From an uncultured Verrucomicrobiaceae bacterium (GTDB taxonomy: Bacteria; Pseudomonadota; Gammaproteobacteria; Pseudomonadales; CAMLJR01): a stretch of 64,000 nucleotides of DNA. The stretch covers positions 81,582 through 145,581 of the forward strand of contig CAZCNY010000007.1 in NCBI GenBank assembly GCA_964500675.1, written 5' to 3'. Shown here in pieces: positions 4,924-29,536 of this stretch (position 1 is its first letter; every line of letters starts with the position of its first letter). The position numbers were made by a program, and so were the translations under genes. The notes beneath the pieces are model-generated. The model had not been told where the DNA came from. It saw only the letters and a program-made list of their open reading frames with translations, and did no database searches.

Positions 4924-4947
4924 TATAAATTATTTCTAGAGGTTGTT

Positions 4948-5463: not shown

Positions 5464-5595
5464 CACGAAACAATCCAGCCCGGGCGATTTTGAAAGCGGT
5501 AACCTGACGTCGGCTTTCATCTAATGGTAATGTGCGTCGTAAGCATTTCGTTCAAAATGCCGTCCACCATTATCTCTCTTCTTGGCTGATGAATC

Positions 5596-6288: not shown

Positions 6289-6306
6289 ATAAGTGCGAGC
6301 ATTGAG

Positions 6307-8051: not shown

Positions 8052-8057
8052 GAAAGC

Positions 8058-11331: not shown

Positions 11332-12024
11332 TTAAAGAACAAACCTATAACCAACCCCGACTTCCGTTAGGAAATGTTTAGGTTTAGCCGGTTCGACTTC
11401 GAGTTTTTGCCGCAGGTTTGCCATAAAAACGCGCAGTGAAGTACTGTTATCCATATACGCCTGTCCCCAGACATCGCGAAGTAATTGTCGATGCGTTAAT
11501 ACCTTGTTTGGATGGCCAATTAAATATACCAAGAGACGGTATTCGATAGGCGTCATATGCACTAATTCATCGCTACGCTTTACGATGCGCGCAGCAAGAT
11601 CAATTCGTATCGAGTCAAATTCAATGACAGGAGACACCTCATCTGTCGCTTTTGTTAAACGGCGCAACATTGCGCGTACGCGCGCGAGCAATTCACCGGT
11701 CCCGAATGGCTTAACGAGATAATCGTCCGCGCCGGCATCGAGCGCGGCAATTTTGTCCTCTTCTTGCGCGCGCGCCGAAAGCACCAGCACGGGTATTGCC
11801 GACCAAGCGCGCAGATCGCGAATGAATTCAACGCCGTCGCGATCGGGTAAACCGAGATCGAGAATAATCAAATTCGGATTGTGTGTGCCCGCCTCGATCA
11901 AACCGCGCTCTACGGTTTCCGCTTCGAATACTTGGCAATTTTCGGCCTCCAGCGCAGAACGCACGAACCGGCGGATTTGCATTTCGTCCTCGACAATCAC
12001 CACGACAGGTTTGTGCGTGCTCAT
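11332..12024 (-). CDS. kdpE: two-component response regulator KdpE (OmpR family)
   Basis: 230 aa with receiver domain (DLGLPDRDG, KPF) plus winged-helix domain. 4-nt overlap with kdpD. Confidence 0.9.
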   Translation of the reverse strand: MSTHKPVVVIVEDEMQIRRFVRSALEAENCQVFEAETVERGLIEAGTHNPNLIILDLGLPDRDGVEFIRDLRAWSAIPVLVLSARAQEEDKIAALDAGADDYLVKPFGTGELLARVRAMLRRLTKATDEVSPVIEFDSIRIDLAARIVKRSDELVHMTPIEYRLLVYLIGHPNKVLTHRQLLRDVWGQAYMDNSTSLRVFMANLRQKLEVEPAKPKHFLTEVGVGYRFVL

Positions 12025-14735
12025 GTGCCAATCCTTCGTTGCGCTTGTTCAAGCGTAATGGGCAGTAACCCCGTCTTATCGACGAAGGGTGGGTCCCCGA
12101 GTGGTAATGTAAACACGAAGCGCGCGCCGCCTAAATGACTTTTCTCGACCCAAATGCGGCCACCATGCGCGGAGACAATCGCGCGACAAATCGCAAGACC
12201 TAAACCCACGCCTGGTGTTGTCGTTTCCGTTTGCCCTCGCGTGAATTTTTCAAACACCTGCTCTTCCATGCCCGCCGGCAAACCAGGACCATCGTCTTCC
12301 ACGGCGATTTCGGCACACTCATTATTTACACTTGCTGCGATTTCAATACGACTACCCGCCGGGGTATATTTCTGCGCATTCTCCAATAAATTAAATAGAA
12401 CCCGCTCGATCAGCACCGCGTCAAATTCAAGCAATGGCAGGTCAGGTGGCAGCTTAACAGTGACTAGATACCCGCCTAGAAAGCTGCTAGTTGCCTTCAC
12501 CGCGGCGCCAACGATTTCTTCGAGTGGCTGCCACTGTTTATTTAATTTAATCTCGCCCGATTGCAGGCGCCCCATGTCGAGCAAATTATTGACGAGTGCC
12601 GTCATGCGCTGTGTTTCGTTTTTAATAGACAACGCGATATCGTGTTGTTCGGCACTCAATTCGGGTTTGCTGACCGATAAATATTCGGTGAGTCCGAGCA
12701 AGGTGGTGAGCGGCGTGCGTAAATCGTGAGACAACGCGGATAACAATGAATTGCGCAGGCGCTCCGATTCGATTTGTACCGTGGTGCGCTGTGCGATATC
12801 GACATAATGCACACGTTCGACCGCCAGCGCGATCAAACTCGCGAAGGTATCGAGCAGGCGGCGCTGCTCCGGGATCAACAGCCAGCGCGTATTGCGCGGT
12901 TCGACTGCAAGCACGCCGCGAAAACGCATCGGCGCTCGCAGCGGCAGATATAAGATCGGCGCAGCCGGCAGCGTGTCCGTGCCGTTTCCGGCGGGCTCGC
13001 CGTGATCGAAAGCCCATTGTGCAACACCGATATCGACTGCGAGCGCGGACTGGCCGAGCGGCGCTTGCAGCTTGTCGCCATCATCGGCAATCAGCAGCGC
13101 CGATTTCGCGCGAAAACCGCTCTCGATAAAGCGGCCGGCGATTTCGGCGATTTGTTCGAGCATCAGCGCGGCCGATAATTCGCGCGACATTTCCGCGATG
13201 GCACGCGCGCGCAATTCGCGGCTCATCGCCACGCGCGCTTGATATTGCGAGCCGGCCGTCAATTGGCCGGTGATCAACGCCACCGTGAGCATCACGGCAA
13301 ACGTGAGCAGGTAACGCACGTCGCTTACCGCAAAGGTGAACCGCGGCGGCACGAAAAAGAAATCGAAAGAAGCGACACTGAGTATGGCAGCAAGCACGGC
13401 GGGACCGCGGCCGAAATACGCGGCGACGAGCACCACCGTGAGCAAAAAAATCATGGCGGTGTTGGTGAGCTCGACGTATGGATAAAGACCGGTAGCGATA
13501 ACTGTTGCGACGACGCAGCCGAATGCGCCGAGCCCGTAATCGAGCCATTGAATTTCGCGCGTGTCGGTATCGCGCTGATCGACCACGTTGCGCTTGTCGT
13601 CGCCATCGCGCGCGACATAAATAATATCGAGATCGGGCGCGAGTTTTCCCAGACGCTCGGCGAGCGAACGTTGCCACCACAGCGGACGCATCGTGCTGCG
13701 CCCGATCAGCACTTTGGCGAGATTGTGATCGCGTGCGTAACGCGCAACGGTCTGTACGATATCGTTGCCGGGCAACGTGGCGGTTTCGGCCCCCATATCC
13801 TGCGCGAGCTTGAGTGTTTTCAGAATATGCTGCCGCCGCGATGATGACAGCCGTTGCAGTTGCGGTGTTTCGGTATAAATCGCGTGCCACGGCGCACCGA
13901 GTTTGCTCGCGAGACGCGCGGCGCTGCGCACGAGTTTTTCTTCGCCCGCGCCGGGGCCGATGCACACAAGCAATGATTCGCGCGTTTGCCAAACGGGCAA
14001 TACCGCCTGGTGCTGTCGATACTGGCGCATTTCATCGTCGATGCGATCAGCCGTACGCCGCAGTGCGAGTTCGCGCAGTGCGATCAAGTTGCCCTTTCTA
14101 AAAAAATTATTGATGGCGCGCTCGGCTTGCTGCGCCATGTAAACCTTGCCCTCCTTTAAACGCTGCAATAATTCGTCGGGCGGCAAATCGACGACAACGA
14201 CCTCATCGGCTTCGTCGAACACGCGATCCGGTACGGTCTCCCACACGCGAATCCCCGTGATGCTACCGACGATATCGTTGAGACTTTCGATGTGCTGCAC
14301 GTTGACCGTGGTGTAAACATCGATGCCGGCCGCCAACAATTCTTCGATATCCTGCCAGCGTTTGGGATGGCGCGAGCCCGCGACATTCGAATGCGCGAGT
14401 TCGTCGACGAGAATCAATTGCGGTTTACGCGCGAGCGCTGCATCGAGATCGAATTCCTTCAGCGTGCGATCGCGATATTCAATCGACTGCAACGGAACTT
14501 GTTCGAAACCTTCGAGCAATGCCGCCGTTTCACCGCGGCCATGCGTTTCGATAATGCCGATAACGGCATCGACGCCCTGCGCGCGAATCTGTCGCGCCGC
14601 CGACAACATCGCGTAGGTTTTACCGACGCCGGCAGAGGCACCAAAAAATATTTTGAGTTTGCCGCGCCGTGCACGCTCGTCTTCCTGCCTGATGCTTTCA
14701 AGCAATTGATCCGGATCGGGGCGACGTTCGCTCAT
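12021..14735 (-). CDS. kdpD: sensor histidine kinase KdpD
   Basis: 904 aa with N-terminal KdpD domain (GASAGVGKTYAML), Usp-like region, 4 TM segments, GAF-like region and a HisKA/HATPase core (LSHDLRTPL, GLGLAI). Confidence 0.93.
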   Translation of the reverse strand: MSERRPDPDQLLESIRQEDERARRGKLKIFFGASAGVGKTYAMLSAARQIRAQGVDAVIGIIETHGRGETAALLEGFEQVPLQSIEYRDRTLKEFDLDAALARKPQLILVDELAHSNVAGSRHPKRWQDIEELLAAGIDVYTTVNVQHIESLNDIVGSITGIRVWETVPDRVFDEADEVVVVDLPPDELLQRLKEGKVYMAQQAERAINNFFRKGNLIALRELALRRTADRIDDEMRQYRQHQAVLPVWQTRESLLVCIGPGAGEEKLVRSAARLASKLGAPWHAIYTETPQLQRLSSSRRQHILKTLKLAQDMGAETATLPGNDIVQTVARYARDHNLAKVLIGRSTMRPLWWQRSLAERLGKLAPDLDIIYVARDGDDKRNVVDQRDTDTREIQWLDYGLGAFGCVVATVIATGLYPYVELTNTAMIFLLTVVLVAAYFGRGPAVLAAILSVASFDFFFVPPRFTFAVSDVRYLLTFAVMLTVALITGQLTAGSQYQARVAMSRELRARAIAEMSRELSAALMLEQIAEIAGRFIESGFRAKSALLIADDGDKLQAPLGQSALAVDIGVAQWAFDHGEPAGNGTDTLPAAPILYLPLRAPMRFRGVLAVEPRNTRWLLIPEQRRLLDTFASLIALAVERVHYVDIAQRTTVQIESERLRNSLLSALSHDLRTPLTTLLGLTEYLSVSKPELSAEQHDIALSIKNETQRMTALVNNLLDMGRLQSGEIKLNKQWQPLEEIVGAAVKATSSFLGGYLVTVKLPPDLPLLEFDAVLIERVLFNLLENAQKYTPAGSRIEIAASVNNECAEIAVEDDGPGLPAGMEEQVFEKFTRGQTETTTPGVGLGLAICRAIVSAHGGRIWVEKSHLGGARFVFTLPLGDPPFVDKTGLLPITLEQAQRRIGT

Positions 14736-14772
14736 GACATGTTCCTTGCCAGCGATCAGTGGCTATATGCAC

Positions 14773-15345
14773 CTAGTGTGATTGATCCAATGCGAGATTT
14801 AATTTCAATACATTGACTCTCGGCTCACCGAAAATACCCAATTGTCGTCCCTCCGTATTCTGCGCGATCAATTGATCGACTTTCGCTTTGTCGATACCGC
14901 GTGTTTTGGCAACACGCGCAGCTTGATACGCTGCGGCTGCCGGACTGATATGCGGATCAAGACCGCTGCCCGACGCCGTCACCAAATCCACGGGTATAGG
15001 CGCGTGGTTGTCAGGATCCGCCGCATGCAAGGCATCGACACGCGCTTTGATATTGTCGGTGAGCACTGGATTGAGCGGCCCCAGATTCGACCCGCTCGAT
15101 GCGCTCGCGTTATACGGTTGCGGCGATGTTGCGGATAGGCGGCCCCAGAAATATTTTGGACTGGAAAAATTCTGGCCGATCAATGCCGAGCCTACCAGTT
15201 TGCCATTTTCAATGATCAGGCTGCCTGCCGCCTGCTCGGAAAATACCGCCTTGCCGATCCCCGTGACGACAAGCGGATACAGCAGACCCGTGATCACCGA
15301 TAACACGACAAATAATAAAGTAGCCGGTCTTAGTGCGCTGAACAT
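14773..15345 (-). CDS. kdpC: K+-transporting ATPase subunit C
   Basis: 190 aa, collinear with KdpC ([10 protein letters not shown]..., [11 protein letters not shown]). Confidence 0.92.
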
Positions 15346-15369
15346 GATCTTTACTCCGTTGCTCGCTGA

Positions 15370-17469
15370 TTATGCCAAACCAAGTGCGACCAAAATTAAA
15401 TCGATGGCTTTGATGCCGATAAACGGCGCAATGATGCCGCCCAAACCGTAGATCAATAAATTTCTGCGCAGCAAAATCGCCGCGCCGAGTGCGCGATATT
15501 TCACGCCTTTGAGTGCCAGTGGAACCAGCGCGATGATAATCAACGCATTGAAGATCACGGCTGACATCACCGCCGAATTCGGACTCGCCAGATGCATGAT
15601 GTTAAGCGCGGACAATTGCGGGTACGTCGTAATAAACGCTGCAGGAATAATCGCAAAATATTTGGCGATATCATTAGCGATGCTGAATGTCGTCAGCGAG
15701 CCGCGCGTCATCAGCATTTGTTTGCCGGTTTCGACAACCTCGATCAACTTGGTCGGGTTTGAATCGAGATCGACCATGTTGCCCGCTTCTTTTGCCGCCT
15801 GTGTGCCGCTGTTCATCGCGACGGCGACATCGGCTTGCGCGAGTGCGGGCGCATCGTTAGTGCCGTCGCCCGTCATCGCCACCAGTTTGCCCTGCGCTTG
15901 ATATTCGCGAATCAATGCGAGCTTGGCTTCGGGTGTCGCTTCCGCGAGAAAATCATCGACGCCCGCTTCGGCGGCAATGGCCGCTGCGGTTAAGCGATTG
16001 TCGCCCGTGATCATCACGGTTTTGATGCCCATGCGACGCAATTCGGCAAAGCGCTCTTTGATACCGCCTTTGACGATATCTTTTAACTCGATAACACCGA
16101 GCACTTTGGCGCCATCGGCGACCACCAACGGTGTGCTGCCACGACGCGCAACTTCGTCGACGGCTTGCTGAGTCGAGTCGTAAAACAAACCGCCGAGCGT
16201 TTCGATATGTTTGCGAATCGCTTCCGCAGAGCCTTTGCGCAGTTGCCGCTCGCCGCTTTCTTTTTTTAGATCAACATTGGCTGTTTTCAAGTTCACACCG
16301 CTCATGCGCGTCTGTGCAGAAAAATGCACGAAGGTGGCATTGAGCGCGTGCACATCGCGTTCGCGCAAATTGAATTTTTGTTTGGCCAGCACAACGATGC
16401 TGCGACCCTCTGGGGTTTCATCGGCGAGTGAAGATAATTGAGCGGCATCGGCGAGAGCTTCTTCGCTAATACCTTTCGCCGGAATAAATGCGGAGGCTTG
16501 GCGATTGCCCAGCGTGATCGTGCCGGTTTTATCGAGCAGCAAGACATCGACATCGCCCGCCGCTTCGACTGCACGACCCGATGTGGCAATGACATTCGCT
16601 TGCAACATTCGGCTCATGCCGGCAATGCCAATGGCCGATAGCAGACCGCCAATCGTGGTAGGAATCAGACACACGAGCAACGCGATCAACACCGTAACCG
16701 TCACTGGCGAACCGGCGCCCGCTGCGTTGACGCTGTAAATCGAAAACGGCAGCAACGTGACGGTAACGCCGAGAAAGACGATGGTGAGCGCGACAAGCAA
16801 AATCGTGAGCGCAATTTCGTTCGGCGTTTTTTTGCGTTTCGCGCCTTCCACCATCGCGATCATGCGATCGAGAAATGTCTCACCGGGATTGGCGGTAATT
16901 TTCACCACGATCCAATCCGACAACACGCGCGTGCCGCCAGTGACTGAGGAAAAATCGCCGCCCGATTCGCGGATCACCGGTGCCGATTCGCCCGTGATCG
17001 CGCTTTCGTCTACCGACGCGACGCCTTCGATGACTTGTCCGTCCATCGGAATCACATCGCCTGCGTCGACAAGGACGACATCGCCTTTAACCAACGAGGT
17101 CGCTGACAACGGCAAAAATTTAGCGCCATACCTCGGCTCCTGCAGTTTTTTCGCGAGCACGGTTTTTTTCATGCCGCGCAGCGCAGCGGCCTGCGCTTTG
17201 CTGCGGCCTTCGGCGAGCGCTTCGGCAAAATTCGCGAACAGCACGGTGAACCACAGCCACAGCGCAATACCGAGAATAAATCCGGCGGGCGCTTCGCCAT
17301 GCCCCACCAACGCTTCATAACAAAGATACGTGGTGAGAATGCTGCCGATGTACACCACAAACATCACGGGATTACGCCACTGCGTGCGCGGATCGAGTTT
17401 CTTGAAAGCATCGCCAATCGCCGGCACAACTAACGCCGGATCGAGCATCGCTAAACTTTTTTTCGACAT
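15370..17469 (-). CDS. kdpB: K+-transporting P-type ATPase subunit B
   Basis: 699 aa with the P-type ATPase DKTGTIT phosphorylation motif and [12 protein letters not shown] hinge. Confidence 0.96.
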
Positions 17470-17485
17470 GATGATTTCTCCGCGC

Positions 17486-19279
17486 TCAGTGAGCGATCAA
17501 CTGCAAATGTTCAACGATCGGGCCGAGCGCCAAACCCGGAACATAATTGAGTGCGCCAACGAGAATGACAGTGCCTGCGAGCAGAATCACAAACAGTGGA
17601 CCGTGCGTTGGCATCGTGCCCGCACTGACAGCGATGCGTTTTTTCGCAGCGAGTGAACCTGCAATCGCGAGCACGGGGACGATCACGCCGAAGCGGCCGA
17701 ACCACATCGCAATCGCCAGCATGATGTTGTAGAACGGCACGTTGGCGGAAATGCCGGCGAACGCGCTGCCGTTGTTGTTACCGGCTGAGGTGAACGCGTA
17801 ATACACTTCGGAAAATCCGTGCGCGCCCGGATTGAAAATACTGGCGGTGCCGCTCGCACTCACCACAGCGATCGCGGTTCCCGCGAGCACCAGCAGCGGT
17901 GTAATCAGAATCGCGATCGAGATCATTTTCATATCGAACGCTTCGATTTTCTTGCCGACGTATTCGGGCGTGCGACCGATCATCAAACCTGCGATAAATA
18001 CCGCCAGCAATGCAAACACCAGCATGCCGTACAGGCCCGTGCCGACGCCGCCGAACACCACCTCGCCCAATTGCATGAGCGCCAGCGGCACCATGCCGCC
18101 GAGCGGCGTGAATGAATCGTGCATACCATTGACTGCACCGCACGAAGCCGCCGTGGTGATCGCAGCGAATAAGCCCGAATCAGCGATACCGAAGCGCGCT
18201 TCCTTGCCTTCCATATTGCCGCCCGACTGCAATGGCGTTGCGCTTTGGTCGATATTGAATTGTGCAAAGAGCGGATTGCCGTGCTGCTCAAAATGCGTCG
18301 CGGCAATGGCGAACGGAATAAATAAAACCAGCATCGTCGCGAGCACCGCCCAACCCTGCCGCGTATCGCCGACCATACGACCGAACGTGTAACACAGTGC
18401 GCTTGGGATTAGAAAAATCGCCACCATCTGTAGAAAATTGCTGAGCGGTGTGGGATTTTCAAACGGGTGCGCGGAGTTCGCATTGAAAAATCCACCACCG
18501 TTGGTACCGAGCATTTTTATCGCTTCTTGCGAAGCCACTGGCCCCATCGCGAGTGTTTGTGTCTGTGTACTTGCCGCCTCGGTAACCGCATTGCCTTTCT
18601 CATCCTTCACAGGCTGTCCAGCGGCGTCGAGTTTTGCTGTTTGGTATGCGGTGACTTCCAGCGTAGTGACGTCTTTGTACGCATCGAAATTTTGAATAAC
18701 GCCCTGGCTGACAAACGCCAATGCCAGCACGAATGAGAGCGGTAATAAAATAAATAACGTCACGCGCGTCAGATCGACCCAGACATTGCCGATGGTTTTA
18801 ATCGAGTGACGCGCCAGCCCGCGAATCAATGCGATAACCACAACGATGCCGGATGCTGCACTCAAAAAATTCTGCACAGCGAGCGCGAGCATCTGCGTGA
18901 GATAGCTTATCGTCGCTTCGCCGACGTAACCCTGCCAGTTGGTATTCGAAATAAAGCTGACTGCCGTATTGAACGACGAATCGGCACTCACATTCGCCAT
19001 GTGTTGTGGATTGAGCGGCAACCACAATTGCATGCGCTGCAATACGTACACAGACAAGGTGCCGATCAGCGTGAATAACAGCAGCGAAATGGCATAGCGC
19101 GACCAATGCATTTCCTCAGACGCGCGAATACTACAAATTCGATAAATCGCGGCCTCGATGCGTGCAGCAAAACCGAGTTTTCCTTCCATCACGTTGGCGA
19201 TGTAAATGCCAAGCGGTTTCACGCACAATAACAGCACCGCAAAATACAGCACCATAGTGAGCCAGGCGTGGTGTGTCAT
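17486..19279 (-). CDS. kdpA: K+-transporting ATPase subunit A
   Basis: 597 aa polytopic protein, collinear with KdpA (NTNWQGY, GTNGGGF selectivity-filter-like repeats). Confidence 0.95.
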
Positions 19280-19785: not shown

Positions 19786-20377
19786 TTACCGAGACCGCAG
19801 CAATCGCTCGCGAAATTCTCCGGGTGTTAGACCGATCCCGCGCCGGAAGGCAACGCAGAAATTCGATGGCGATGAGAAGCCCAGCGTTTCCGCGATTGCG
19901 GCAACACTTTCATCGGTCGCTAATAAGCGTTTGGCGTGTTCAATCTGTCGCTGCGCAACGTAAGCGCCGATGGAGTGGCCGTAACTGCCAGGGTGCAAGC
20001 CCGCCGTGGGGTTGCGCATCCAACACCACGGTGCCGCGGCGCATCAGTTCGACGGTCAATTGTGTGGTGATGGAATCGACGAGTATTTGACTGGCAAATC
20101 CCGGTTGCCTCGCTTCTTCCGCCAATCTGAGCAGCAGGCTTTGAATGCGTGTGTCCTGCACATCGAGCGCGGCTAGCAATAGATTTTCGGTCGGCTCGGG
20201 GAGGACATCAAATAACTCGATAATGGATTCGCGTTTGAGATGGCAGGTGATCGATGTCAGCGAGGTGCTTTCATCGCTTTCGATCTGTAAATCCAGATCG
20301 GGCGGCGCAATGAAGAAATCGTCGTCACCGCGCGGCGCACGGAAGAAAATATTCAAAAAGTGCCGCTGTCGATACAT
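19786..20377 (-). pseudogene. AraC-family transcriptional regulator, 5'-truncated and internally deleted/frameshifted
   Basis: Two ORF-track pieces in different frames (19940..20377 and 19786..20019). The first ends ...GGLAPWQLRPLHRRLRCAATD*. The second carries only the second HTH half (GHSIGAYVAQRQIEHAKRLLATDESVAAIAETLGFSSPSNFCVAFRRGIGLTPGEFR). About 40 codons that normally hold the first HTH are missing at the junction, and the N-terminal sensing domain is incomplete. Confidence 0.75.
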
Positions 20378-20381
20378 TTAC

Positions 20382-20864
20382 ATGGATGCTTATTTTGTCG
20401 AGTTTATGGTGCCGAGAAGTTCGGCGAGCCCTCAACTCGATTGTACGGGCAGCTATATTTCAAACGGTCAGTTGGGCAATTATTCCTGCATACCGTTTGC
20501 GGATACGCCTAAACAACAATACAGCGTCGGCTTTAATTACAAACTGCCGATCGATAAACAATTTGGTGATGTTGAAGCCGCATTCACTTATAGTCACGTG
20601 GACAAACGTTATACGGCGCCAATAACCGTTCCCCAGGCCGAGCCTGGTGCTTGGCTGGATAGTTTTGGTATCTTGAACGGCAGTATCAGTTGGAGCGAAG
20701 TTTTTAAAACACGGTTCGATTTGCAAGTGTTTGGAACGAATTTAACCAACCAGACCTATCGCGTGTCCAACAGCAATACCTGGAATGAATTGGGTTATCA
20801 AAATACGATTTGGAGTGAGCCTCGCATGTATGGCGTAAAAGCCACGTATCGCTGGGGTGATTAA
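20382..20864 (+). pseudogene. C-terminal ~160-codon fragment of a TonB-dependent receptor
   Basis: The tail of ORF 20145..20864 reads ...YSVGFNYKLPI...LQVFGTNLTNQTYRVSN...SEPRMYGVKATYRWGD. These are typical terminal beta-strands of a TonB-dependent receptor. The plug and most of the barrel are absent, and the upstream part of the ORF is antisense to the AraC remnant. Confidence 0.7.
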
Positions 20865-20882: not shown

Positions 20883-21587
20883 ATGAATAACAGAGGTCAA
20901 CTTATTCTATTGTGGACAACGCCCGTTGCCGGCGTTTTGTTTTTGCTGGCTTATTTTTTATTTCCGGGGTTTTCGCCGCCGATGTCGCCGACGATGACGC
21001 CGGAGCAGGTCGCTGCGTTTTTCAGGGAGCATATCACCAGCATTCGCGGTGTCGCCATTTTTTGTAACGTCATCGCCGCTACGCTGGTGCCACTGTTTGC
21101 GATCGTCGCCGTGCAGATGCTGCGCGTTGTCAATTCGAGCCCCGTGTTTGCCTACTCTTACATCATCTGTGTGGGAATCGGCATGACGGAATTTATTCTT
21201 GCCGATTACTCGTGGGGTGTTGCGGCGTTCAGGCCCGATCGCGATCCACAGCTGATCAGCTTGCTCAACGATATGGCGTGGTTTTTTTTCATCGCGCCGG
21301 TGGGAACGATCATGGTGCAAAACCTCTGCCTCGCGTTGAGCATCTATCTCGATGCGCGCCCAAAGCCGGTATTTCCGCGCTGGGTGGCGCACTTCAATAT
21401 CGCGACTGCGCTGCTGATGCTGCCCGGTGCATTTTCGATTCTTTACAAAACAGGGCCGCTCGCGTGGGATGGCAGCGTATCGTTTTCGTTGCGTTTAATA
21501 ACCTTTGCAGTCTACGTTGCGGTGATGTTCGTGGTGCTGCTGCGTATCGTGAATCGACAAATTGAAAACGAGGGCGTTGCAGCATGA
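20883..21587 (+). CDS. polytopic membrane protein of unknown function (paralogue A)
   Basis: 234 aa with ~6 hydrophobic segments. It shares PPMSP..(T/S)...VAAF and KTGPLAWDG motifs with the next gene. I recognise no domain. Confidence 0.7.
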   Translation: MNNRGQLILLWTTPVAGVLFLLAYFLFPGFSPPMSPTMTPEQVAAFFREHITSIRGVAIFCNVIAATLVPLFAIVAVQMLRVVNSSPVFAYSYIICVGIGMTEFILADYSWGVAAFRPDRDPQLISLLNDMAWFFFIAPVGTIMVQNLCLALSIYLDARPKPVFPRWVAHFNIATALLMLPGAFSILYKTGPLAWDGSVSFSLRLITFAVYVAVMFVVLLRIVNRQIENEGVAA

Positions 21588-22366
21588 GCGAGTCCATCGC
21601 GATCAGTTTGCACGGCACGCAAAGCGAAAAAGTGCCGTGGTACAAAAATAAAAAGCTCGATCAGTGGATTTGTTTCTGGTGCGTTCCGGTTTTTTATAAT
21701 CTGTTCGGGCTCGTGTTTGTACCGCTCAGCTGGATGATGCCGCCGCGCTCGCCGGCGAATTCGTTGCCCGGCATTGTCGCGTTCATGCAATCGCCTAATC
21801 TGCTGATTGCCTCGACGATCTTGATACTTTCGATCGGGCTGGCGGCCGTTGGAAATGCGGTGTACGTGGTGCAGATGCAGCGCATGTCCGTGAGCCCGGT
21901 ATTGCGCTATGCATTTATGGCGGGCTCGATGACCGGCGCGGTTGTCGGCTGCCTGTTTCCGATGTTCTGTTTTGGTCTGGGCGCTTTTCGCTCGGGCTAT
22001 CGACCTGAAATTTTGCAGATGTTGTACGACTTCGGCTATCTGTCGTTCATCGGTTCGCTGGGTTGTTTCTGCGTGATGTGGTCCTCGCTCGCCTTATCGA
22101 TATTGTTAGATAAAAATAATATTTTGCCCAAGTGGCTCGGCTACTACACGGTGTGGCAGTACGTCACGGAGTTATTCGCCTCGATGGTATGGATCGACAA
22201 AACCGGGCCGTTTGCCTGGGATGGTTTGCTCGCGTTCTGGTTCGACATGGTGATTTACGTGCCGTGGCAATTCATTATTTATTTCTGCATTTACAAGGCC
22301 ATCAAAAAACAGCCGGTGAACGAATTGGCCAATGCGCAGCTCGTACCCAAAGCGACGTATGCCTGA
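21584..22366 (+). CDS. polytopic membrane protein of unknown function (paralogue B)
   Basis: 260 aa. ATGA overlap with paralogue A. Carries MPPRSPANSLPGIVAF and KTGPFAWDG motifs parallel to paralogue A. Confidence 0.7.
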   Translation: MSESIAISLHGTQSEKVPWYKNKKLDQWICFWCVPVFYNLFGLVFVPLSWMMPPRSPANSLPGIVAFMQSPNLLIASTILILSIGLAAVGNAVYVVQMQRMSVSPVLRYAFMAGSMTGAVVGCLFPMFCFGLGAFRSGYRPEILQMLYDFGYLSFIGSLGCFCVMWSSLALSILLDKNNILPKWLGYYTVWQYVTELFASMVWIDKTGPFAWDGLLAFWFDMVIYVPWQFIIYFCIYKAIKKQPVNELANAQLVPKATYA

Positions 22367-22377
22367 GGTGGGTTTCG

Positions 22378-23019
22378 ATGAGCGACGCGACGGTAAATAC
22401 AGAAGAAGCTTCGCCGGCGGCCGGCGCTTTTGATAACAAGAAAGGATCTGATAACAAACAAGCAGCTGCACGGGGGCATCTTCCCGGCTCATCCGCCATG
22501 TGGTTTTTTATCCTCGGCGACTTAATGATTTTTGGTGTTTACTTCATTTGCTATGTGTATTACCGCGGCCAGAACCAGCCGCTGTTTCTGCAAAACCAAC
22601 AACATTTGAATCAGACGGTTGGCGTTATCAATACCGTCATACTGCTGACAAGCTCGCTGTTTGTCGCGCTCGGTACCCAAGCCGCGCGCGCGGGGAAAAC
22701 CAACGATGCCTTTCGCCTGTTCGGCATTGCGTTGGCGTTTGGGGCGTTTTTCCCATTTCTCAAAATGACGGAGTGGATACCCAAAATCAGCGCGGGTATG
22801 ACGCCCGGAGCAAATCTTTTTTTCATGTATTACTACGTGATGACGGGGCTGCATCTGTATCACGTGTTGCTCGGGCTCGTGCTTATCGGTTTTGTCATGT
22901 ATGACTTGCGCAAGTCGAGCCAGCCCAATATTGCGTTTGTCGAAAACGGCGCCATTTATTGGCACATGGTCGATTTGCTCTGGCTGGTTTTGTTCGCGCT
23001 GTTTTATTTAATGAGATAG
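22378..23019 (+). CDS. heme-copper oxidase subunit III-like protein (NorE/NirO/CyoC-like, 5 TM)
   Basis: ORF 22132..23019 trimmed to ATG 22378 (GAGGTGG upstream). HLPGSSAMWFFILGDLMIFG...YYYVMTGLHLYHVLLGL...YWHMVDLLWLVLFALFYL follows the short subunit-III pattern. Confidence 0.8.
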   Translation: MSDATVNTEEASPAAGAFDNKKGSDNKQAAARGHLPGSSAMWFFILGDLMIFGVYFICYVYYRGQNQPLFLQNQQHLNQTVGVINTVILLTSSLFVALGTQAARAGKTNDAFRLFGIALAFGAFFPFLKMTEWIPKISAGMTPGANLFFMYYYVMTGLHLYHVLLGLVLIGFVMYDLRKSSQPNIAFVENGAIYWHMVDLLWLVLFALFYLMR

Positions 23020-23022
23020 AGA

Positions 23023-23301
23023 ATGACGGCATACCTGCGTAATCCGCTAACTTACGTCTGGGCTTTTTTGACGCTCATTACGATCGCGTCGTGGTGGATC
23101 AGCCGAAGCAGCGGTGCTGAGTTTAAAATCAATCCGGCAGTTACCGCCGGTGTGTTGCTGATCGCGCTGATTAAATCGCGGCTGGTGCTGCGCTATTTCA
23201 TGGAGGTGCGCACCGCGCCGGCATGGTTGCGCTGGGTTTGCGACGGCTGGCTTATGGTTGCTTTCGGACTGATTTTCGCGTTCTATTACGTCTCGCTGTG
23301 A
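23023..23301 (+). CDS. small membrane protein, prokaryotic cytochrome oxidase subunit IV-like (NorF/NirP/CyoD-like)
   Basis: 92 aa with 3 TM segments, starting 3 nt after the subunit-III-like gene. Size, position and hydrophobicity match subunit IV family proteins. The sequence-level call is from memory only. Confidence 0.6.
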   Translation: MTAYLRNPLTYVWAFLTLITIASWWISRSSGAEFKINPAVTAGVLLIALIKSRLVLRYFMEVRTAPAWLRWVCDGWLMVAFGLIFAFYYVSL

Positions 23302-23352
23302 AGTTTTAAAATGACCGCGTCGATACCGCCATAATTTCCGGAGACACTGATC

Positions 23353-24411
23353 ATGCGCGTAGGGTTACATTTGGGGTATCAGAATCTCAACGGCATGTCC
23401 GATGCCGAGAAATTCATGCAGGAAACCCGGTTCGCTATTGAGGCCGAGGCGATGGGTTTCGATTATGTCGGCCCGGTCGAGCATCACTTTACCGATTATG
23501 CGGCGTGCCCCGATCCTTTTCAGATGTTGGCCTACGTCGCGGCGAAAACAAAAACAATAAAACTGATTACGGCCGCGACCATTTTGCCGTGGAATAATCC
23601 GCTGCGCGTGGTGGAGCAGGCGATCGAACTCGATATTTTGAGCGAAGGGCGTTTGATACTCGGCATGGGTCGCGGCGCGGCGCGCCGGGAATTCAAATCG
23701 TTCGGCGTCGAACTCAAAGATTCGCGCGAAATGTTCGATGAAGCTGCGCTCATCGTTATGCAGGGCACCGAAACCGGTATCGTCGAAGCCGACGGCCAAT
23801 GGTTCAAGATTCCGCGCACCGAAATTCGTCCGCGTCCGTTCAAATCCTTTAAAGATCGCACCGTCATGGTGTCGATGTCACCTTCGTCGGTGGACGTGGC
23901 GGCGCGCTATGGGTTGCAAACGCTGCGCTTTTCGCAGGGCGATTGGCGCAATGCGATTCCCGAAATCAATCAATACCGAAAAACATTCCTCGAATTGCAC
24001 AAGCGCGAAGCGCCACCGTTTATTATTTCCGACTTCGTGCTGTGCTTTAACGATAAGCGCAGGGTGACCGAATATTGCGATAAATATTTTTCGCGCATGT
24101 TCGCGACGGTCGCCAATCATTACGAATTCATGAGCGCCCATTTCAAGGAGCTGCCGTCGTATTCGACCTATGCCTACATGGGTCAAATGGCGGAAGCCGC
24201 CGGCGGCCCCGACAAGGCTTATCGCGATTACATCGGCGGCAATATGATCGGCACGCCCGAAGAATTGGTGGAGTACCATCTCAACCGCGCGTCGATGGTT
24301 GGCGATTACGAAATTCTCGCGAATTTCAGTTTTGGCGGTTTGCCTTACGAATTGGTTTACGAGCAGGCCAAATTGTTCGCGGACAAGGTTTTGCCGAAAC
24401 TCAAAGGCTAA
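23353..24411 (+). CDS. LuxA-like LLM-class flavin-dependent monooxygenase
   Basis: 352 aa. The FDYVGPVEHHFTDYAACPDPFQMLAYVAA and GRLILGMGRGAARREF blocks parallel bacterial luciferase alpha (LLEHHFTEFG..., GRFRFGICRG). GGAG RBS present. Confidence 0.85.
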   Translation: MRVGLHLGYQNLNGMSDAEKFMQETRFAIEAEAMGFDYVGPVEHHFTDYAACPDPFQMLAYVAAKTKTIKLITAATILPWNNPLRVVEQAIELDILSEGRLILGMGRGAARREFKSFGVELKDSREMFDEAALIVMQGTETGIVEADGQWFKIPRTEIRPRPFKSFKDRTVMVSMSPSSVDVAARYGLQTLRFSQGDWRNAIPEINQYRKTFLELHKREAPPFIISDFVLCFNDKRRVTEYCDKYFSRMFATVANHYEFMSAHFKELPSYSTYAYMGQMAEAAGGPDKAYRDYIGGNMIGTPEELVEYHLNRASMVGDYEILANFSFGGLPYELVYEQAKLFADKVLPKLKG

Positions 24412-24439
24412 TCAAATAATAACGTAGGGGATTCAGTCG

Positions 24440-25195
24440 ATGGCGGAAAACAAACGCATTGCGCTGGTGACTGGCGGCGGTGTCGGCATGGGCGCGGCGG
24501 CGTGTCAGCGTTTCGCCAGAGATGGCATGGCGGTGGCTGTGCTCGATATCAACGGTGATGCCGCTGCAAGCGTGGCGGCTGCAATCAATGCGGCTGGCGG
24601 TCGAGCACTGGCGGTTGTCGCGGATGTCTCCGATCGAGCGCAGGTGGAAATTGCCGTCGATAAAATTCGCGCAGCGCTCGGCCCGATTACCGTGTTGGTA
24701 AATAACGCCGGGGTCGAGAGCTTTATGCCATTTGAGGAAATCGGCGACGATACCTGGGATCGGTTGATGGCGGTCAATCTCAAGGGTGCGTACATCGTCA
24801 CCCAGGTTGTGCTGCCGGATATGTTCGCGTGCGGCTGGGGACGAATAATCAACATCTCTTCGTTCGGTGCGCAAATCGGCGCGCCGACGATGGTGCATTA
24901 CTCGGCATCGAAAGGCGGCATTATTTCTATGACAAGATCGCTGGCATTAGAACTCGGTCGAAGAGGTATTACCGTGAATTCAATTGCGCCAGGCTTCATC
25001 GATACGCCGATGGCGCGTCGAGCGATAGCGGGTAATAAATTTCCTATGCCCATCGAGGACATGCTCAAGTCATATCCCATTCCGCGTTTGGGAAAACCGG
25101 AGGAAGTGGCGGCGGCCTGCGCGTTTTTCGCCTCCGAAGAGGCGGGATATATCACCGCGCAACTGTTGGGTGTTAATGGCGGAACGGCGGTTTAG
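24440..25195 (+). CDS. SDR-family oxidoreductase (FabG-like)
   Basis: 251 aa with TGGGVGMG cofactor motif, NNAG, and the S...YSASK catalytic triad context. Confidence 0.9.
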   Translation: MAENKRIALVTGGGVGMGAAACQRFARDGMAVAVLDINGDAAASVAAAINAAGGRALAVVADVSDRAQVEIAVDKIRAALGPITVLVNNAGVESFMPFEEIGDDTWDRLMAVNLKGAYIVTQVVLPDMFACGWGRIINISSFGAQIGAPTMVHYSASKGGIISMTRSLALELGRRGITVNSIAPGFIDTPMARRAIAGNKFPMPIEDMLKSYPIPRLGKPEEVAAACAFFASEEAGYITAQLLGVNGGTAV

Positions 25196-25424: not shown

Positions 25425-26333
25425 TCAAAGTTTTGCAATCACCTCCGCTCCAAACCGCGCGGCGTTATCGCACCATTCCGCGCGCGTTTTGCCATCGATG
25501 CTGATGCCCGCGCCGATCACGCCCATTTCCTTGAATTTGCCGATCTTGTCGATGAGTTGTGGCGGAGTCCATTTTTCTCCCGGTTGCGTGATGCTGGCGA
25601 GAAATATCTGCGGCAGGTTGTTGCGTCCGACTTTTTCGCAGTGTTCGCGCATGTAAGCGATGCCGTCGGCGAGGTCGAGTTCGCTGGTCATCGCGGCGGT
25701 GCGTGCGGTCGATGAGACTTGTGCGGGCGTGAAGAAGGGATTCCAGCCGTCGGCCATTTCGACGACGCGGCGAATCGCGCGTTTGGAATTGCCGCCGATA
25801 TAGAGAAGCGGATGCGGCGTTTGCACCGGACGCGGACGCATGCGATTGCCGCGCGCGCTGTAGCCGGTGCCTTCGAAATTAAATTCTTCGCCGGTCCACG
25901 CGAGCTTCATCGCTTGCAGATATTCATCCATGGTTTCGTTGCGGCGTTCGAAATCTGCGCCGAGCGCGAAATATTCGCCTTTCAAATAACCCGCACCGAA
26001 GCTCAACGTTAAACGGCCGTTGGAAAATACATCGAGCGTCGCCGCTGCGCGCGCGACAATGAATGGATTGCGATACGGCAAAACTAAAATGCCGGTTTGC
26101 AGGCGCAATTTTTTCGTGTGCGCGGCGACGAGGCTCAGCATCACGAACGGATCTTGCGCATCGTGGCCGCCGGCATCGAGCCACTTGGCCGTCGGGCAGG
26201 GATGGTCGGTGACATTGCCGCCATTAAATCCAGCGCGCTCTACCGTTTGGCTGATTTCGGCAACCGCATCCATGGTGAGAAATTCTTGCGGAGCAAACGT
26301 GTGATCGAAGGGGAGCGTTACGTTGAGTTTCAT
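25425..26333 (-). CDS. LLM-class oxidoreductase, probably F420-dependent (Rv2161c-like subgroup)
   Basis: ORF 25425..26354 (TTG) trimmed to ATG 26333 (MKLNVTLPF...). NVTDHPCP, LQTGILVLPYRNP and GRLTLSFGAGY blocks are typical of the short (~300 aa) LLM group annotated as F420-dependent. The cofactor assignment is an inference. Confidence 0.75.
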   Translation of the reverse strand: MKLNVTLPFDHTFAPQEFLTMDAVAEISQTVERAGFNGGNVTDHPCPTAKWLDAGGHDAQDPFVMLSLVAAHTKKLRLQTGILVLPYRNPFIVARAAATLDVFSNGRLTLSFGAGYLKGEYFALGADFERRNETMDEYLQAMKLAWTGEEFNFEGTGYSARGNRMRPRPVQTPHPLLYIGGNSKRAIRRVVEMADGWNPFFTPAQVSSTARTAAMTSELDLADGIAYMREHCEKVGRNNLPQIFLASITQPGEKWTPPQLIDKIGKFKEMGVIGAGISIDGKTRAEWCDNAARFGAEVIAKL

Positions 26334-26377
26334 GATGAGTCTCTTTAATTTCAAAAAATCTTTTCGAAAAAAATAAA

Positions 26378-27235
26378 TTAATTTTCAATATCGCCAACCA
26401 GCGTCCACTTGCCCGCTTTGTTGCGAATCCATCCGCTCGATGCCCAGGTGCCGCCATCGACGGGAATCACGGTGCCCGTCACGTATTCGCTCATTTTCGA
26501 GGCGAGAAATACCGCGACATTGCCGCACTCGGTATCGATGCCGGGACGGCTGAGTGGAATGCGACGCGCGGTGGCGTCGGCTTGCGCAGGTGTCGGTTGA
26601 ATCCATGTCGAAGGATCGACCGGGCCTTTGATATTGCCGCTGAGTCCTGGCGTTAGGGTGTAATCGGGCGCAATCGCGTTGACGCGAATACCGTGATCGG
26701 CAAGCTCCAGTGCGAGCGAGCGCGTGAAATTGAGCATGCCGGCTTTACATGCGGCGTACACGGAAAAATACGGCGCCGCGCGCGATGCCTCGATACTCGC
26801 GACGTTGATAATGGCGCCGCCGCGTTTGCCATCGATGATGTGCGGCGCTGCCGCGGACGTTGCCGCGAGCATGCTGACTAAATTCAAATCGATCGCGCGG
26901 CGCCACGCGCGTTCGGATTGCTCGATAAACGGTTTGGGTGCGACACCGCCGGCGTTGTTGACGAGAATATCGATGCGCCCGAAATGTTTGTGCGTGCTTT
27001 CGACCATCACGCGAATCTGATCGGTGTCGGTGACGTCGGTCGTCACGGGCAACGCTGCGCGTCCCATTTCGCGCACACGCGCCGCCGTTTCCTCGCAGCG
27101 CTCGGGAACGATATCGGCGATGACAATATTTGCGCCCGCCGCTGCGAACGCGAGTGCAATCGCTCTGCCGATGCCGCCACCGCCGCCGGTGACGATGGCG
27201 ACTTGATCCGTTAAAAGTATGTCGGTTGTCTGCAA
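26378..27235 (-). CDS. SDR-family oxidoreductase
   Basis: 285 aa with VAIVTGGGGGIGRAIA, NNAG and YAACKAG catalytic motif. TTG start with GAGAGA upstream. Confidence 0.88.
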   Translation of the reverse strand: MQTTDILLTDQVAIVTGGGGGIGRAIALAFAAAGANIVIADIVPERCEETAARVREMGRAALPVTTDVTDTDQIRVMVESTHKHFGRIDILVNNAGGVAPKPFIEQSERAWRRAIDLNLVSMLAATSAAAPHIIDGKRGGAIINVASIEASRAAPYFSVYAACKAGMLNFTRSLALELADHGIRVNAIAPDYTLTPGLSGNIKGPVDPSTWIQPTPAQADATARRIPLSRPGIDTECGNVAVFLASKMSEYVTGTVIPVDGGTWASSGWIRNKAGKWTLVGDIEN

Positions 27236-27254
27236 AATAAAATTCTCTCAAACT

Positions 27255-27279
27255 AAACCAAATCAAACCAAATCAAATC
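27255..27279. repeat. short tandem decamer in an intercistronic spacer
   Basis: AAACCAAATC AAACCAAATC AAATC lies between the unknown 360-aa gene and the SDR gene. Confidence 0.6.
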
Positions 27280-27311
27280 AAGGCGAATGTCGGTGCTGTC
27301 AGCAAATAGCA

Positions 27312-28394
27312 TCAGCCAATAGTCGTCAGACTTTCATGTGATGAGCGCTCCATCATGCCATAGGCGGTTTGATCATCCCAGGTATAACGCACGCCCGTTT
27401 GCTGCAAGTTGAGGCCGCCGATATCGGGATTGCCGACGCGGAACGTCGACAACGCCGTCACGCCTTTGATGCGCGTAATGCCTAAATCGGATTCGAGTTC
27501 CAATGATGCATCGTCGCCTTCGCCGATAATACGGCGCAGCCACGGAATTTTCACGGCGCGCGCAGGATGCATTTTGCCATCTTGAAAAATATAACCCTCG
27601 TTCAATGCGGTGCCATCTTCGCGCGGCGGATAAGTGATATAGCCGAACGCGCGGCCATCGGGAAATACCGCGGATTGCCAGCAGTGCCCGCGAAAGCCGC
27701 CGAGTGGGCGCACGCTCTGGCGTTTAATGCGTAATCCAGAGCCTTTGAATTCACGCTCTTTGCCATCGAGATAAATCTCTTTACCATCAACAGAAAAAAA
27801 ACCGCGCGCGCGAAATAATTGTTCGAAGCGCCAGCCGATGCCCATGTACGCGGCTTCGGCAGCTTCCTTCTCCGACATTTTCGCCACTTTCTCCGGCGAA
27901 AAATCCTGCACCCACGCCGGCGTGACCATTTCCAATTCGACGTCGAAACGCACCTGCGTGCGCTTGTTCGGATCGATGGTTTTGTGAATTTGCTGATCCA
28001 CAGTGCCATCGATTGCGCTGCCATCGAAGGTCATGCGCCATTTGCGAAATGGCTCTAAGCACTGAAATGCAATCGGCCCGGCACCTAAGATTGCGGGTTT
28101 GCCGCTGGCATCGAAAGGCGAATGCGCAGCGCCCATACCGGCGCCATTCAAAATGCGTCCGCCCGCAATAGCAAAATTGCCTTGCACGCGACGGTTGTCC
28201 CACGACGACGCTTCGGCTTCGATGCCGACACGCGGAAACGCGAACGCGCCGTTTTCTTCGTACAGCCATACCGATGTGCTCTCGCGCATGTCTGGATTCG
28301 CGGGTTTTTCCGCAAAAAATAAATCGTGCTCGGGTGTGAGCCCATTCATCATTTGTTCGAGTGCTATTTGTTTGGGTGTTAAGGACATTTTCAT
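27312..28394 (-). CDS. conserved-looking protein of unknown function (360 aa)
   Basis: ORF 27312..28529 trimmed to MKMSLTPKQ... at 28394. This forms an ATGA overlap with the sulfotransferase stop and has GGGGA upstream. Soluble, beta-rich composition. I can name no motif. Confidence 0.65.
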   Translation of the reverse strand: MKMSLTPKQIALEQMMNGLTPEHDLFFAEKPANPDMRESTSVWLYEENGAFAFPRVGIEAEASSWDNRRVQGNFAIAGGRILNGAGMGAAHSPFDASGKPAILGAGPIAFQCLEPFRKWRMTFDGSAIDGTVDQQIHKTIDPNKRTQVRFDVELEMVTPAWVQDFSPEKVAKMSEKEAAEAAYMGIGWRFEQLFRARGFFSVDGKEIYLDGKEREFKGSGLRIKRQSVRPLGGFRGHCWQSAVFPDGRAFGYITYPPREDGTALNEGYIFQDGKMHPARAVKIPWLRRIIGEGDDASLELESDLGITRIKGVTALSTFRVGNPDIGGLNLQQTGVRYTWDDQTAYGMMERSSHESLTTIG

Positions 28395-29536
28395 TTTCCC
28401 CGCTTGGTCCACGCCGTCATGCGCGCGACATAATCCGAAAATAATTCGCGCACCTGATTGAGATCGACACCGTAAGCGCTCGCTTCTTTTTTTGAACTCG
28501 GTTCGCGATTTTCCGAATTCTGCTTCCACCAGCGCGCCATATTGGTTTCGAACTCGGCGCTGATCGGTTCGCCGAGCCAGTCATATAAACCGCGCACTTC
28601 GCGGATGGGGTCTTCGTGCATGGCGCGAAAATGAATATCGTAGAAACGTGCGTTATGGTTGGCCGCGTCGCGGAATTTCAGCGCGCGCTTCATTCCCTCG
28701 GACCACTGCCGAATATTCAGCTCCGCCACCGAAGCGATATCGAGATGTTCGGTGAATTTGCCGATGATATCGGCATACACTTCGATCACCGACAGCATGA
28801 CATCGGTGGGGTCGCGGTGCGTCATCACAAAACGCGCATCGGGAAAAGCGTTGTTGAGATGATCCAGATAAATTAAATGCGTCGGGCATTTGAGCCGCCA
28901 CGATTTTTCCGGCATGCGCCACTGCAATAATTTCAGCGCGCGGCGCTCGTACAGATACGTCGATGTCAGATCGGCGTCGAGCAGCCAATCGGCGTAAGAT
29001 GGAATTTGCGCGAACGCGATAAATATTTGCGATTTAAAATCGAGAGCCATTAAATCCTGACATTCTGCGGGCGCGTCTGCGCCGGAGGGCACGTGCGTTT
29101 TCAATCCGGTTGCGCGCTGCATCGCGGCGTCGTGATCGATTTTTGTATTTGCCAGGCAGGGCGGTGGGCACGGTTGCGCTGCTTCCATTCTGCGCAGCGA
29201 ACGCGCGTTGGGATCTTCCGCCAACAGAAATGACAGTACCGTCGAGCCCGTGCGCGGCAGGCTGATGCCGATCAGCGGCGCCTTGATCGACACCGCGTCG
29301 ATTTCCGGATATCGGCGATACCAGTCTTCAATTTGCAAACGCTGCTTGAGATGGTTGAGGATGCGCTCGCGCAGAATCTTGTCGCCGAGTGCATTGAGTT
29401 TCGCCTCGTTATTCAGCGCATCGACGAGAATTTCGAGACCTTCGAGGAACGTGTCCGCGCCGAAATCGTTGAGCCCGGTTTCAGCTTTGGCGATATCGAG
29501 CAACGTTTTATATCCTTCCACGGTCGAGCTCCTCAT
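28391..29536 (-). CDS. sulfotransferase-family protein (PAPS-dependent, Stf-like)
   Basis: 381 aa with an LPRTGSTVLSFLL 5'-PSB loop and a later THRDPTDVMLS block, typical of the bacterial Sulfotransfer_3-type family. Confidence 0.8.
   Translation of the reverse strand: MRSSTVEGYKTLLDIAKAETGLNDFGADTFLEGLEILVDALNNEAKLNALGDKILRERILNHLKQRLQIEDWYRRYPEIDAVSIKAPLIGISLPRTGSTVLSFLLAEDPNARSLRRMEAAQPCPPPCLANTKIDHDAAMQRATGLKTHVPSGADAPAECQDLMALDFKSQIFIAFAQIPSYADWLLDADLTSTYLYERRALKLLQWRMPEKSWRLKCPTHLIYLDHLNNAFPDARFVMTHRDPTDVMLSVIEVYADIIGKFTEHLDIASVAELNIRQWSEGMKRALKFRDAANHNARFYDIHFRAMHEDPIREVRGLYDWLGEPISAEFETNMARWWKQNSENREPSSKKEASAYGVDLNQVRELFSDYVARMTAWTKRGK

Follow-up and report, generated by a model that had tools for sequence, protein, structure and literature searches.

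A conserved four-gene membrane cassette joins DUF4386-like paralogues to a subunit III/IV-like pair and is a candidate for handling hydrophobic substrates

Results

The A-B-C-D cassette and its conservation

The window analysed here is a 64,000-nucleotide (nt) stretch, at positions 81,582 to 145,581 of contig CAZCNY010000007.1 (assembly GCA_964500675.1), from an uncultured gammaproteobacterium. At 20883-25195, it carries six co-directional open reading frames, here called A to F, which a first-pass annotation had taken for one functional unit coupling membrane proteins to a luciferase-like monooxygenase (LLM) and a short-chain dehydrogenase/reductase (SDR). Comparison with related loci showed that the conserved unit consists of four genes, A-B-C-D (20883-23301), and not of six. 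Judging from its genomic context, this cassette may encode one inner-membrane complex by which bulky hydrophobic substrates are taken up or handled, a reading to which we assign a probability of about 0.42.

Gene A (20883-21587, + strand), the first of the cassette, encodes a protein of 234 amino acids (aa), and gene B (21584-22366, +), the second, a protein of 260 aa; their reading frames overlap by 4 nt (ATGA). Neither product has a Pfam or NCBIfam match. The two proteins are paralogues, with 26% identity over 226 residues (E = 2e-22), and both are remote relatives of DUF4386. Gene C (22378-23019, +), which begins after a gap of 11 nt, encodes 213 aa from its ATG, with a longer, GTG-started frame opening at 22132; its product matches the COX3 family (PF00510, E = 4e-12) and is NorE/CyoC/CtaE-like. 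It is followed, after 3 nt, by gene D (23023-23301, +), whose 92-aa product matches COX4_pro (PF03626, E = 5e-14) and is NorF/CyoD-like. Hydropathy and AlphaFold agreed on six transmembrane helices in A, six in B, five in C and three in D. All six reading frames, with the junctions described here and below, were confirmed; the families to which the first-pass annotation had assigned them also proved real, by Pfam and NCBIfam scans and, for the paralogy of A and B, by alignment. A to F are real genes, with 1398 database relatives for A and 268 for B.

Genes A, B, C and D were found in constant order and spacing in 87 out of the 87 fetched loci that were not cut by a contig end. The stop codon of A overlapped the start codon of B (ATGA or GTGA) in 81 out of 81 loci, and the gap between C and D measured 2-6 nt in 77 out of 81. 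A scan of one genome per species revealed an A relative in 316 genomes. The carriers were marine or hydrocarbon-associated Gammaproteobacteria, including Halieaceae and Solimonas, and Mycobacteriaceae, the latter including the known degraders M. austroafricanum, M. vaccae, M. rhodesiae JS60 and M. vinylchloridicum. In broad terms, marine bacteria that degrade oil or lipids share the cassette with mycobacteria. Between gammaproteobacterial and actinobacterial orthologues, median identity was 65% for A, 62% for B, 59% for C and 51% for D, values showing that the cassette proteins evolve unusually slowly, under strong purifying selection. The idea of a tight unit is thus borne out for the four membrane proteins, whose translationally coupled genes keep their order, overlaps and spacing across two phyla. 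Of the co-occurrences proposed for public genomes, that of A and B with subunit III/IV-like genes was found, whereas that with an orthologous LLM gene was not.

The combination had been put forward as undescribed, and we found no description of it in Pfam, NCBIfam, PADLOC, PDB or full-text literature searches. We rate the cassette as an undescribed system assembled partly from known parts. PADLOC models matched none of the proteins A-D, which ruled out an anti-phage defence system.

Proteins A and B

The nearest relatives of A and B were found in Spongiibacteraceae, Litorivivens, Zhongshania, Mangrovimicrobium and Ketobacter, with Mycolicibacterium proteins at 65-74% identity. B was 66-85% identical to its orthologues from Spongiibacteraceae, Zhongshania, Ketobacter and Mycolicibacterium. 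Among 79 orthologues of A from two phyla, 87 of the 234 positions were at least 97% invariant; in B, 95 of the 260 positions were invariant, likewise across two phyla. The two paralogues retain different sets of invariant residues, the intramembrane polar ones being D108, N129, D130, N147 and H170 in A, and D149, D176, Q192 and E196 in B.

No histidine or cysteine was conserved family-wide in the alignments of A or B. Since neither protein thus keeps a conserved His or Cys able to hold a redox centre, this counts against the handling of electrons by the membrane complex, which the first-pass annotation had considered. According to predicted topology, the Arg, Asp and Gln residues conserved family-wide gather at both membrane faces, as a periplasmic cluster (PPxSP, R117, D130 and GPxAWxG) and a cytoplasmic one (Q78, R81, D157 and R166/W167). 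It is tempting to speculate that two such charged clusters would suit gating networks.

AlphaFold produced a model of A from a deep alignment with a predicted local distance difference test score of 94.1 and a predicted template-modelling score of 0.89. A Foldseek search of 350,542 PDB chains with this model returned no solved relative at E ≤ 0.001 (best E of 0.3, template-modelling score ≤ 0.36), and a profile search of PDB sequences gave no match for A. No likeness of A or B to MFS, ABC, RND, DMT or other transporters was detected with Pfam, NCBIfam or, for the A model, Foldseek. More generally, no characterised transporter or enzyme family, which would have been the trivial explanation of these two proteins, emerged from Pfam, NCBIfam, Foldseek or PDB.

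A and B also stand apart from subunits II and I of the oxidases: each has six transmembrane helices in a fold unrelated to theirs, and lacks both a histidine conserved family-wide and ligands for heme or copper. Neither gave a Pfam match to COX1 or COX2, and Foldseek with the A model retrieved no oxidase subunit. The hallmark of a heme-copper oxidase, i.e., a subunit I with six His ligands for heme and CuB together with a subunit II, is therefore not seen in A and B. The possibility that A and B are a split subunit I was ruled out, as conserved His residues are lacking and the two-fold paralogy is unlike the architecture of subunit I.

Proteins C and D

Neither C, a COX3-family protein, nor D, of the COX4_pro family, reached the curated NCBIfam thresholds for subunit III/IV orthologues. 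C scored 89 bits against a cut-off of 190 for CtaE_Actino (E = 6e-25) and 74 against 224 for CyoC (E = 2e-20), and D scored 27.6 against 37.25 for caa3 subunit IV. The solved chains nearest to C were actinobacterial CtaE and the CyoC of bo3 oxidase. CyoC/CyoD, QoxC/QoxD and the actinobacterial CtaE/CtaF share with C/D their families and the architecture of five and three transmembrane helices; moreover, in cyoABCD-type operons subunits III and IV occupy positions 3 and 4 of a four-gene string, as C and D do here.

The pair had been likened to NorE/NorF (NirO/NirP), and this resemblance was confirmed, C being 34% identical to the NorE of Paracoccus alcaliphilus and D 28% identical to its NorF. 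The label NorE/NorF-like is fair, because the genuine norE and norF of the P. alcaliphilus norCBQDEF cluster are themselves annotated as members of the COX3 and COX4 families. Like C and D, NorE and NorF are an adjacent pair made of a COX3-family protein with five transmembrane helices and a small COX4_pro-family protein, itself non-catalytic; they differ in following norCBQD and in serving a heme-iron catalytic subunit with 12 transmembrane helices. In the cassette, in contrast, no nor, nir, cox or cyo gene was listed nearby, the partner that recurs throughout is one or two DUF4386-like genes, and the context is one of hydrophobic-substrate catabolism under TetR control. In addition, all D-like proteins adjoining DUF4386-like genes share the motif FME(V/L)+xAP, which is missing from Paracoccus NorF.

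The statement that no catalytic oxidase or nitric oxide reductase gene accompanies the pair also held. No COX1, COX2, NorB or NorC was listed within 10 kb on either side at annotated loci, and a tblastn search with NorB matched only the Paracoccus control, the window and the other fetched loci giving no match.

Genomic neighbourhoods of the cassette

The cassette occurs in very different genomic surroundings. In Ketobacter, genes for FadL-type channels, a cytochrome P450 (P450) with its ferredoxin and a TetR regulator lie upstream, and genes for TetR, SDR and SnoaL proteins downstream. In Halieaceae, A-B-C-D is preceded by genes for TetR, P450, Fer2 ferredoxin, SIMPL and a TonB-dependent receptor (TBDR), and in Mangrovimicrobium by genes for TetR and a TBDR. 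KstD-like flavoprotein genes flank the cassette on either side in Zhongshania, and in Mycolicibacterium a TetR gene is divergent from it.

TetR was the family most often counted, at 14 out of the 17 gammaproteobacterial loci and 15 out of the 26 actinobacterial ones. It was followed, at the gammaproteobacterial loci, by the TBDR Plug domain (9 loci), SDR (5), SnoaL (4), P450 (3) and KstD-like proteins (3). A TBDR gene was present within 3.5 kb at at least 12 of these 17 loci, and an intact, co-oriented receptor gene was located directly upstream of the cassette in ten gammaproteobacterial loci.

The P450s found near the cassette at three gammaproteobacterial and two mycobacterial loci belong to one family, with a mutual identity of 45-53%. 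They correspond to CYP150 (CYP150A6, PDB 6dcd; E = 8e-142, 476 bits), and their genes lie at 4799-6055 in locus L005, at 5286-6557 in L001, about 8.4 kb upstream of A in L017, and about 3.1 kb downstream of the start of A in L026 and L058. The CYP150 genes that adjoin the cassette in marine Halieaceae and Ketobacter come with a 2Fe-2S ferredoxin. The presence of CYP150 near the cassette in both phyla suggests a joint exchange between them. CYP150 has been discussed as a monooxygenase of polycyclic aromatic hydrocarbons (PAHs) in Mycolicibacterium (PMC10301208).

The wider DUF4386-like family

A profile search with A and B retrieved 1663 representative clusters, i.e., about 1700 clusters at 50% identity. 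Comparison by hhalign of the A/B profile with that of the distant homologues, a set which includes DUF4386-labelled proteins, gave a probability of 100% (E = 2.7e-68). The DUF4386 model itself (PF14329) is carried by only some of the distant homologues and matched neither A nor B at E ≤ 0.1 in the Pfam scan. A and B are thus homologous by profile comparison to DUF4386, a group of uncharacterised membrane proteins of about 230 aa, while lying under the detection of PF14329. We know of no characterised member of this family. The term DUF4386 was found in no paper by full-text literature search, and a link with COX3 and COX4_pro in no description that we found.

Outside the cassette, COX3 and COX4_pro genes were also found behind a single DUF4386-like gene in Alpha-, Beta- and Gammaproteobacteria, including Porticoccaceae, and in Actinobacteria. 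On plasmid pRB98 of Rhodococcus, this three-gene string directly follows an Mce operon; on a Diaphorobacter plasmid, it lies within a cluster of enoyl-CoA hydratase, MaoC and SDR genes; and on pLA3 of Novosphingobium pentaromativorans, it adjoins a TBDR gene. We also observed on pLA3 (locus L093, around 8347-8640, +) a COX4_pro-like reading frame bearing FMEV between the COX3-family and TBDR genes, which is absent from the PLSDB gene table. Among plasmid-borne homologues, a COX3-like gene was located immediately downstream in 12 out of 18 and within 3 kb in three more. C is 37-43% identical to the COX3-like products encoded after single DUF4386-like genes. As the association spans four bacterial classes, it must be old, and the cassette of the window is a derived form with a duplicated first gene.

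Other family members were solitary, in lipid or steroid-type beta-oxidation clusters. One protein of 705 aa (P0282) joins, as a natural fusion, a DUF4386-like domain to a C-terminal region matching DUF1214 (6.5e-9), which could hint at an interaction partner.

Genes E and F

Gene E (23353-24411, +) starts 51 nt after D and encodes a LuxA-like, LLM-class oxidoreductase of 352 aa (Bac_luciferase, PF00296, E = 1.7e-46). Its nearest solved chains were 8cbb, an 'alkanal monooxygenase alpha chain' (6e-42), and LuxA (6e-26); NCBIfam models of LLM subfamilies stayed far under their cut-offs (at best 115 versus 600 bits). Beside E, we identified no gene for a flavin reductase. Gene F (24440-25195, +), 28 nt further on, encodes a classical, FabG-like SDR of 251 aa (adh_short, E = 1e-60), which also matched several NCBIfam SDR models.

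No orthologue of E or F adjoined A-B-C-D in any of 82 non-redundant related loci, nor in that of the closest relative (A 87% identical), where a toxin-antitoxin pair lies upstream and esterase and SIR2 genes follow D. The SDRs at other loci were unrelated to F, with 25-35% identity and scattered positions. At the 17 gammaproteobacterial loci, no LLM gene was found by BLAST, and LLM was absent among the 25 most frequent families listed. LLM genes did occur in mycobacteria, 1-4 kb downstream of D and not directly adjoining it. Their products, which shared at least 83% identity with each other and thus come from a single subclade of close relatives, had no more than 26% identity to E. As these recurring mycobacterial LLMs are those of one subclade and are not E orthologues, LLM was ruled out as a conserved partner of the cassette.

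The gap between D and E contained no terminator-like site; promoter and terminator motif counts there were at chance level, and consequently give no argument for or against read-through. E is a lineage-specific neighbour, possibly co-transcribed, that lies outside the conserved cassette. F is another lineage-specific neighbour, both genes being local additions.

The locus in the window

A TBDR remnant, a pseudogene located 5' of A (20312-20864, +), was recognised by tblastn with the intact receptors of loci L013, L019 and L021. Receptor residues ~42-65 matched 20312-20377 and residues ~635-797 matched 20373-20861, in different frames. All that survives is about 24 N-terminal residues that follow the signal region, together with ~163 residues at the C-terminal end, about 570 internal codons having been deleted, and the Pfam match was weak and confined to the end of the barrel. 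Upstream of this remnant lies that of an AraC-type regulator (19786-20377, -), in which the second helix-turn-helix is intact (HTH_18, E = 2e-17) and the first is apparently missing; its N-terminal reading frame is in another frame and has no Pfam family. No TetR gene adjoins the cassette in the window. The receptor remnant and the lack of an adjoining TetR gene indicate that the locus has been rearranged, with A-D left intact.

Further upstream, the window contains a complete cluster for F420 biosynthesis (5596-11235, +), encoding an Fno-like F420-dependent NADP oxidoreductase, CofE, CofD, CofC and FbiC (fused CofG/CofH, 855 aa). This cluster lies 12 kb upstream of E and could serve the LLM-class enzymes encoded at 23353-24411 and 25425-26354. 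F420 otherwise occurs typically in Actinobacteria, which is the other phylum with the cassette, besides the apparently marine gammaproteobacterial host that bears the F420 cluster. Between this cluster and the cassette lies the kdp potassium-uptake locus (11332-19279, -), an ordinary housekeeping context, in which the KdpE-like regulator and KdpD were recognised with Pfam, and KdpA and KdpB only by reading their translations.

On the other side of the cassette, a second LLM/SDR pair (25425-26354 and 26378-27235, -) is followed by genes for a DUF7064 protein and a sulfotransferase-family protein, within a stretch extending over 25425-29536 (-). Together with this stretch, E and F look like a small oxidoreductase island of unassigned substrate.

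Discussion

The passage of hydrophobic compounds through the cytoplasmic membrane of bacteria degrading hydrocarbons, PAHs or steroids is poorly understood. Outer-membrane steps, involving FadL and TonB-dependent receptors, are known, as are the Mce systems of Actinobacteria. To our knowledge, no inner-membrane uptake component has been named for most Gram-negative degraders. A strongly conserved cassette located beside such importers, both in oil-degrading marine Gammaproteobacteria and in mycobacteria from the environment, offers a concrete and testable candidate for this inner-membrane step. The loci described here share their genomic logic with receptor-plus-permease loci, in which a TBDR or FadL is combined with an inner-membrane transporter, and with Mce importers: an outer-membrane importer is encoded immediately upstream in the same orientation, accompanied by a TetR regulator and surrounding catabolic genes. 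They differ in that A and B fall outside MFS, ABC, RND and other recognised transporter families; a transport function is proposed from context only.

We propose that A-D would assemble as a single complex of the cytoplasmic membrane. A and B would form its working core, a pseudo-symmetric heterodimer of six plus six transmembrane helices standing where subunit I or NorB stands in oxidases and nitric oxide reductases, and C and D would act as a clamp or stabiliser, as NorE/NorF and CyoC/CyoD do in their own complexes. Such a complex would contain no redox centre and would perform the inner-membrane step for bulky hydrophobic substrates, for which polycyclic, terpenoid, steroid-like or long-chain compounds are candidates. 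These substrates would enter Gram-negative bacteria through a TBDR or FadL, and Actinobacteria through Mce or the mycomembrane, and might subsequently be oxidised by enzymes encoded nearby, such as the CYP150 P450 with its ferredoxin, KstD-like flavoproteins and SDRs or, in the window, the neighbouring LLM and SDR. Expression would normally be controlled by a TetR repressor sensing a hydrophobic ligand.

Several points weigh against this proposal. The physical assembly of A-D is derived from operon structure only. A and B have a fold like that of no known transporter, an energising module, for instance an ATPase, is lacking, and hydrophobic molecules may pass the inner membrane unaided. The neighbourhoods are heterogeneous, with cell-envelope genes in many mycobacteria, and the mycobacterial loci are non-independent observations. 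In the window, the receptor gene is a pseudogene and yet A-D are intact, which implies that the cassette does not strictly depend on that receptor. Finally, the very high conservation and the distinct intramembrane polar invariants of the two paralogues would suit an enzyme no less than a carrier.

This last point leads to the main rival explanation, which we consider rather unlikely on balance, namely that A and B constitute a cofactor-less integral-membrane enzyme (for example an isomerase, hydratase, cyclase or lyase working by acid-base chemistry) that acts on a membrane-dissolved substrate and is stabilised by C and D. It would account for the large share of positions invariant across two phyla, intramembrane Asp, Asn, His, Glu and Gln included, and for the differing invariant sets of A and B, as often seen in pairs of catalytic and auxiliary paralogues. 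It also agrees with the catabolic enzymes encoded nearby and with a fold that matches no transporter. However, no likeness to a known enzyme family was found in Pfam, NCBIfam, PDB or Foldseek searches, and the genes lie immediately beside those of outer-membrane importers and beside an Mce operon, which speaks for transport. Furthermore, the residues conserved family-wide are placed by predicted topology at two membrane faces and not in a single pocket.

Movement in the opposite direction seems improbable: the cassette would then be a TetR-controlled device for protection against, or export of, toxic hydrophobic compounds, providing solvent or PAH tolerance instead of uptake. The frequency of TetR as a neighbour, the highest of all families, would suit such a device, as would the exposure of the carriers to hydrocarbons and xenobiotics and the persistence of an intact cassette in the window next to a dead importer gene. 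Nevertheless, at other loci the cassette is co-oriented with the importers TBDR, FadL and Mce, often in one gene string, and Pfam, NCBIfam and Foldseek detected no likeness to an efflux family.

Two further explanations are much less likely than transport or an enzyme. It is very doubtful that C and D are spare accessory subunits of a heme-copper oxidase or nitric oxide reductase encoded elsewhere, with A and B as its assembly or accessory factors: their families, their identity to Paracoccus NorE and NorF and their closeness to solved CtaE and CyoC are consistent with such a role, but annotated loci list no catalytic subunit, the NorB query was empty, the surroundings are catabolic, with catabolic megaplasmids and TetR regulators, and the constant partner over four classes is a DUF4386-like gene with overlapping frames. 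The model of the first-pass annotation, in which six genes form one system whose membrane complex specifically supplies the LLM and SDR with substrate, protons or electrons, is equally hard to sustain and, as a general system, already largely refuted: co-directional genes with short gaps, the D-E gap free of a terminator-like site, the LLM-class genes downstream of D in one Mycobacterium subclade and the F420 cluster speak for it, whereas E and F lack orthologues beside the cassette elsewhere, even in the 87%-identical relative, none of the gammaproteobacterial loci has an LLM neighbour, the mycobacterial LLMs represent a single lineage distant from E and not directly adjoining D, and conserved redox ligands are missing from A and B.

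A broader form of the transport proposal, which we regard as less probable than the proposal itself and on the whole unlikely, is that A-B-C-D and the three-gene strings, with one DUF4386-like gene before C- and D-like genes, represent a new class of cytoplasmic-membrane complex. In this class, the subunit III/IV module would be re-used around a metal-free core of 12 transmembrane helices and unsolved fold, and the complex would provide the missing inner-membrane uptake step for steroids, terpenoids, PAHs or alkanes, coupled to TBDR or FadL in Proteobacteria and, in Actinobacteria, to Mce or the mycomembrane. If true, the subunit III/IV module would have been kept while an unrelated protein replaced the catalytic heme-copper subunit, and such re-use would bear on the actual roles of NorE/NorF and of subunit III. 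The confident model of A describes a fold of six transmembrane helices with no solved relative. Even if the transport idea is wrong, these results give a functional context to a large uncharacterised family.

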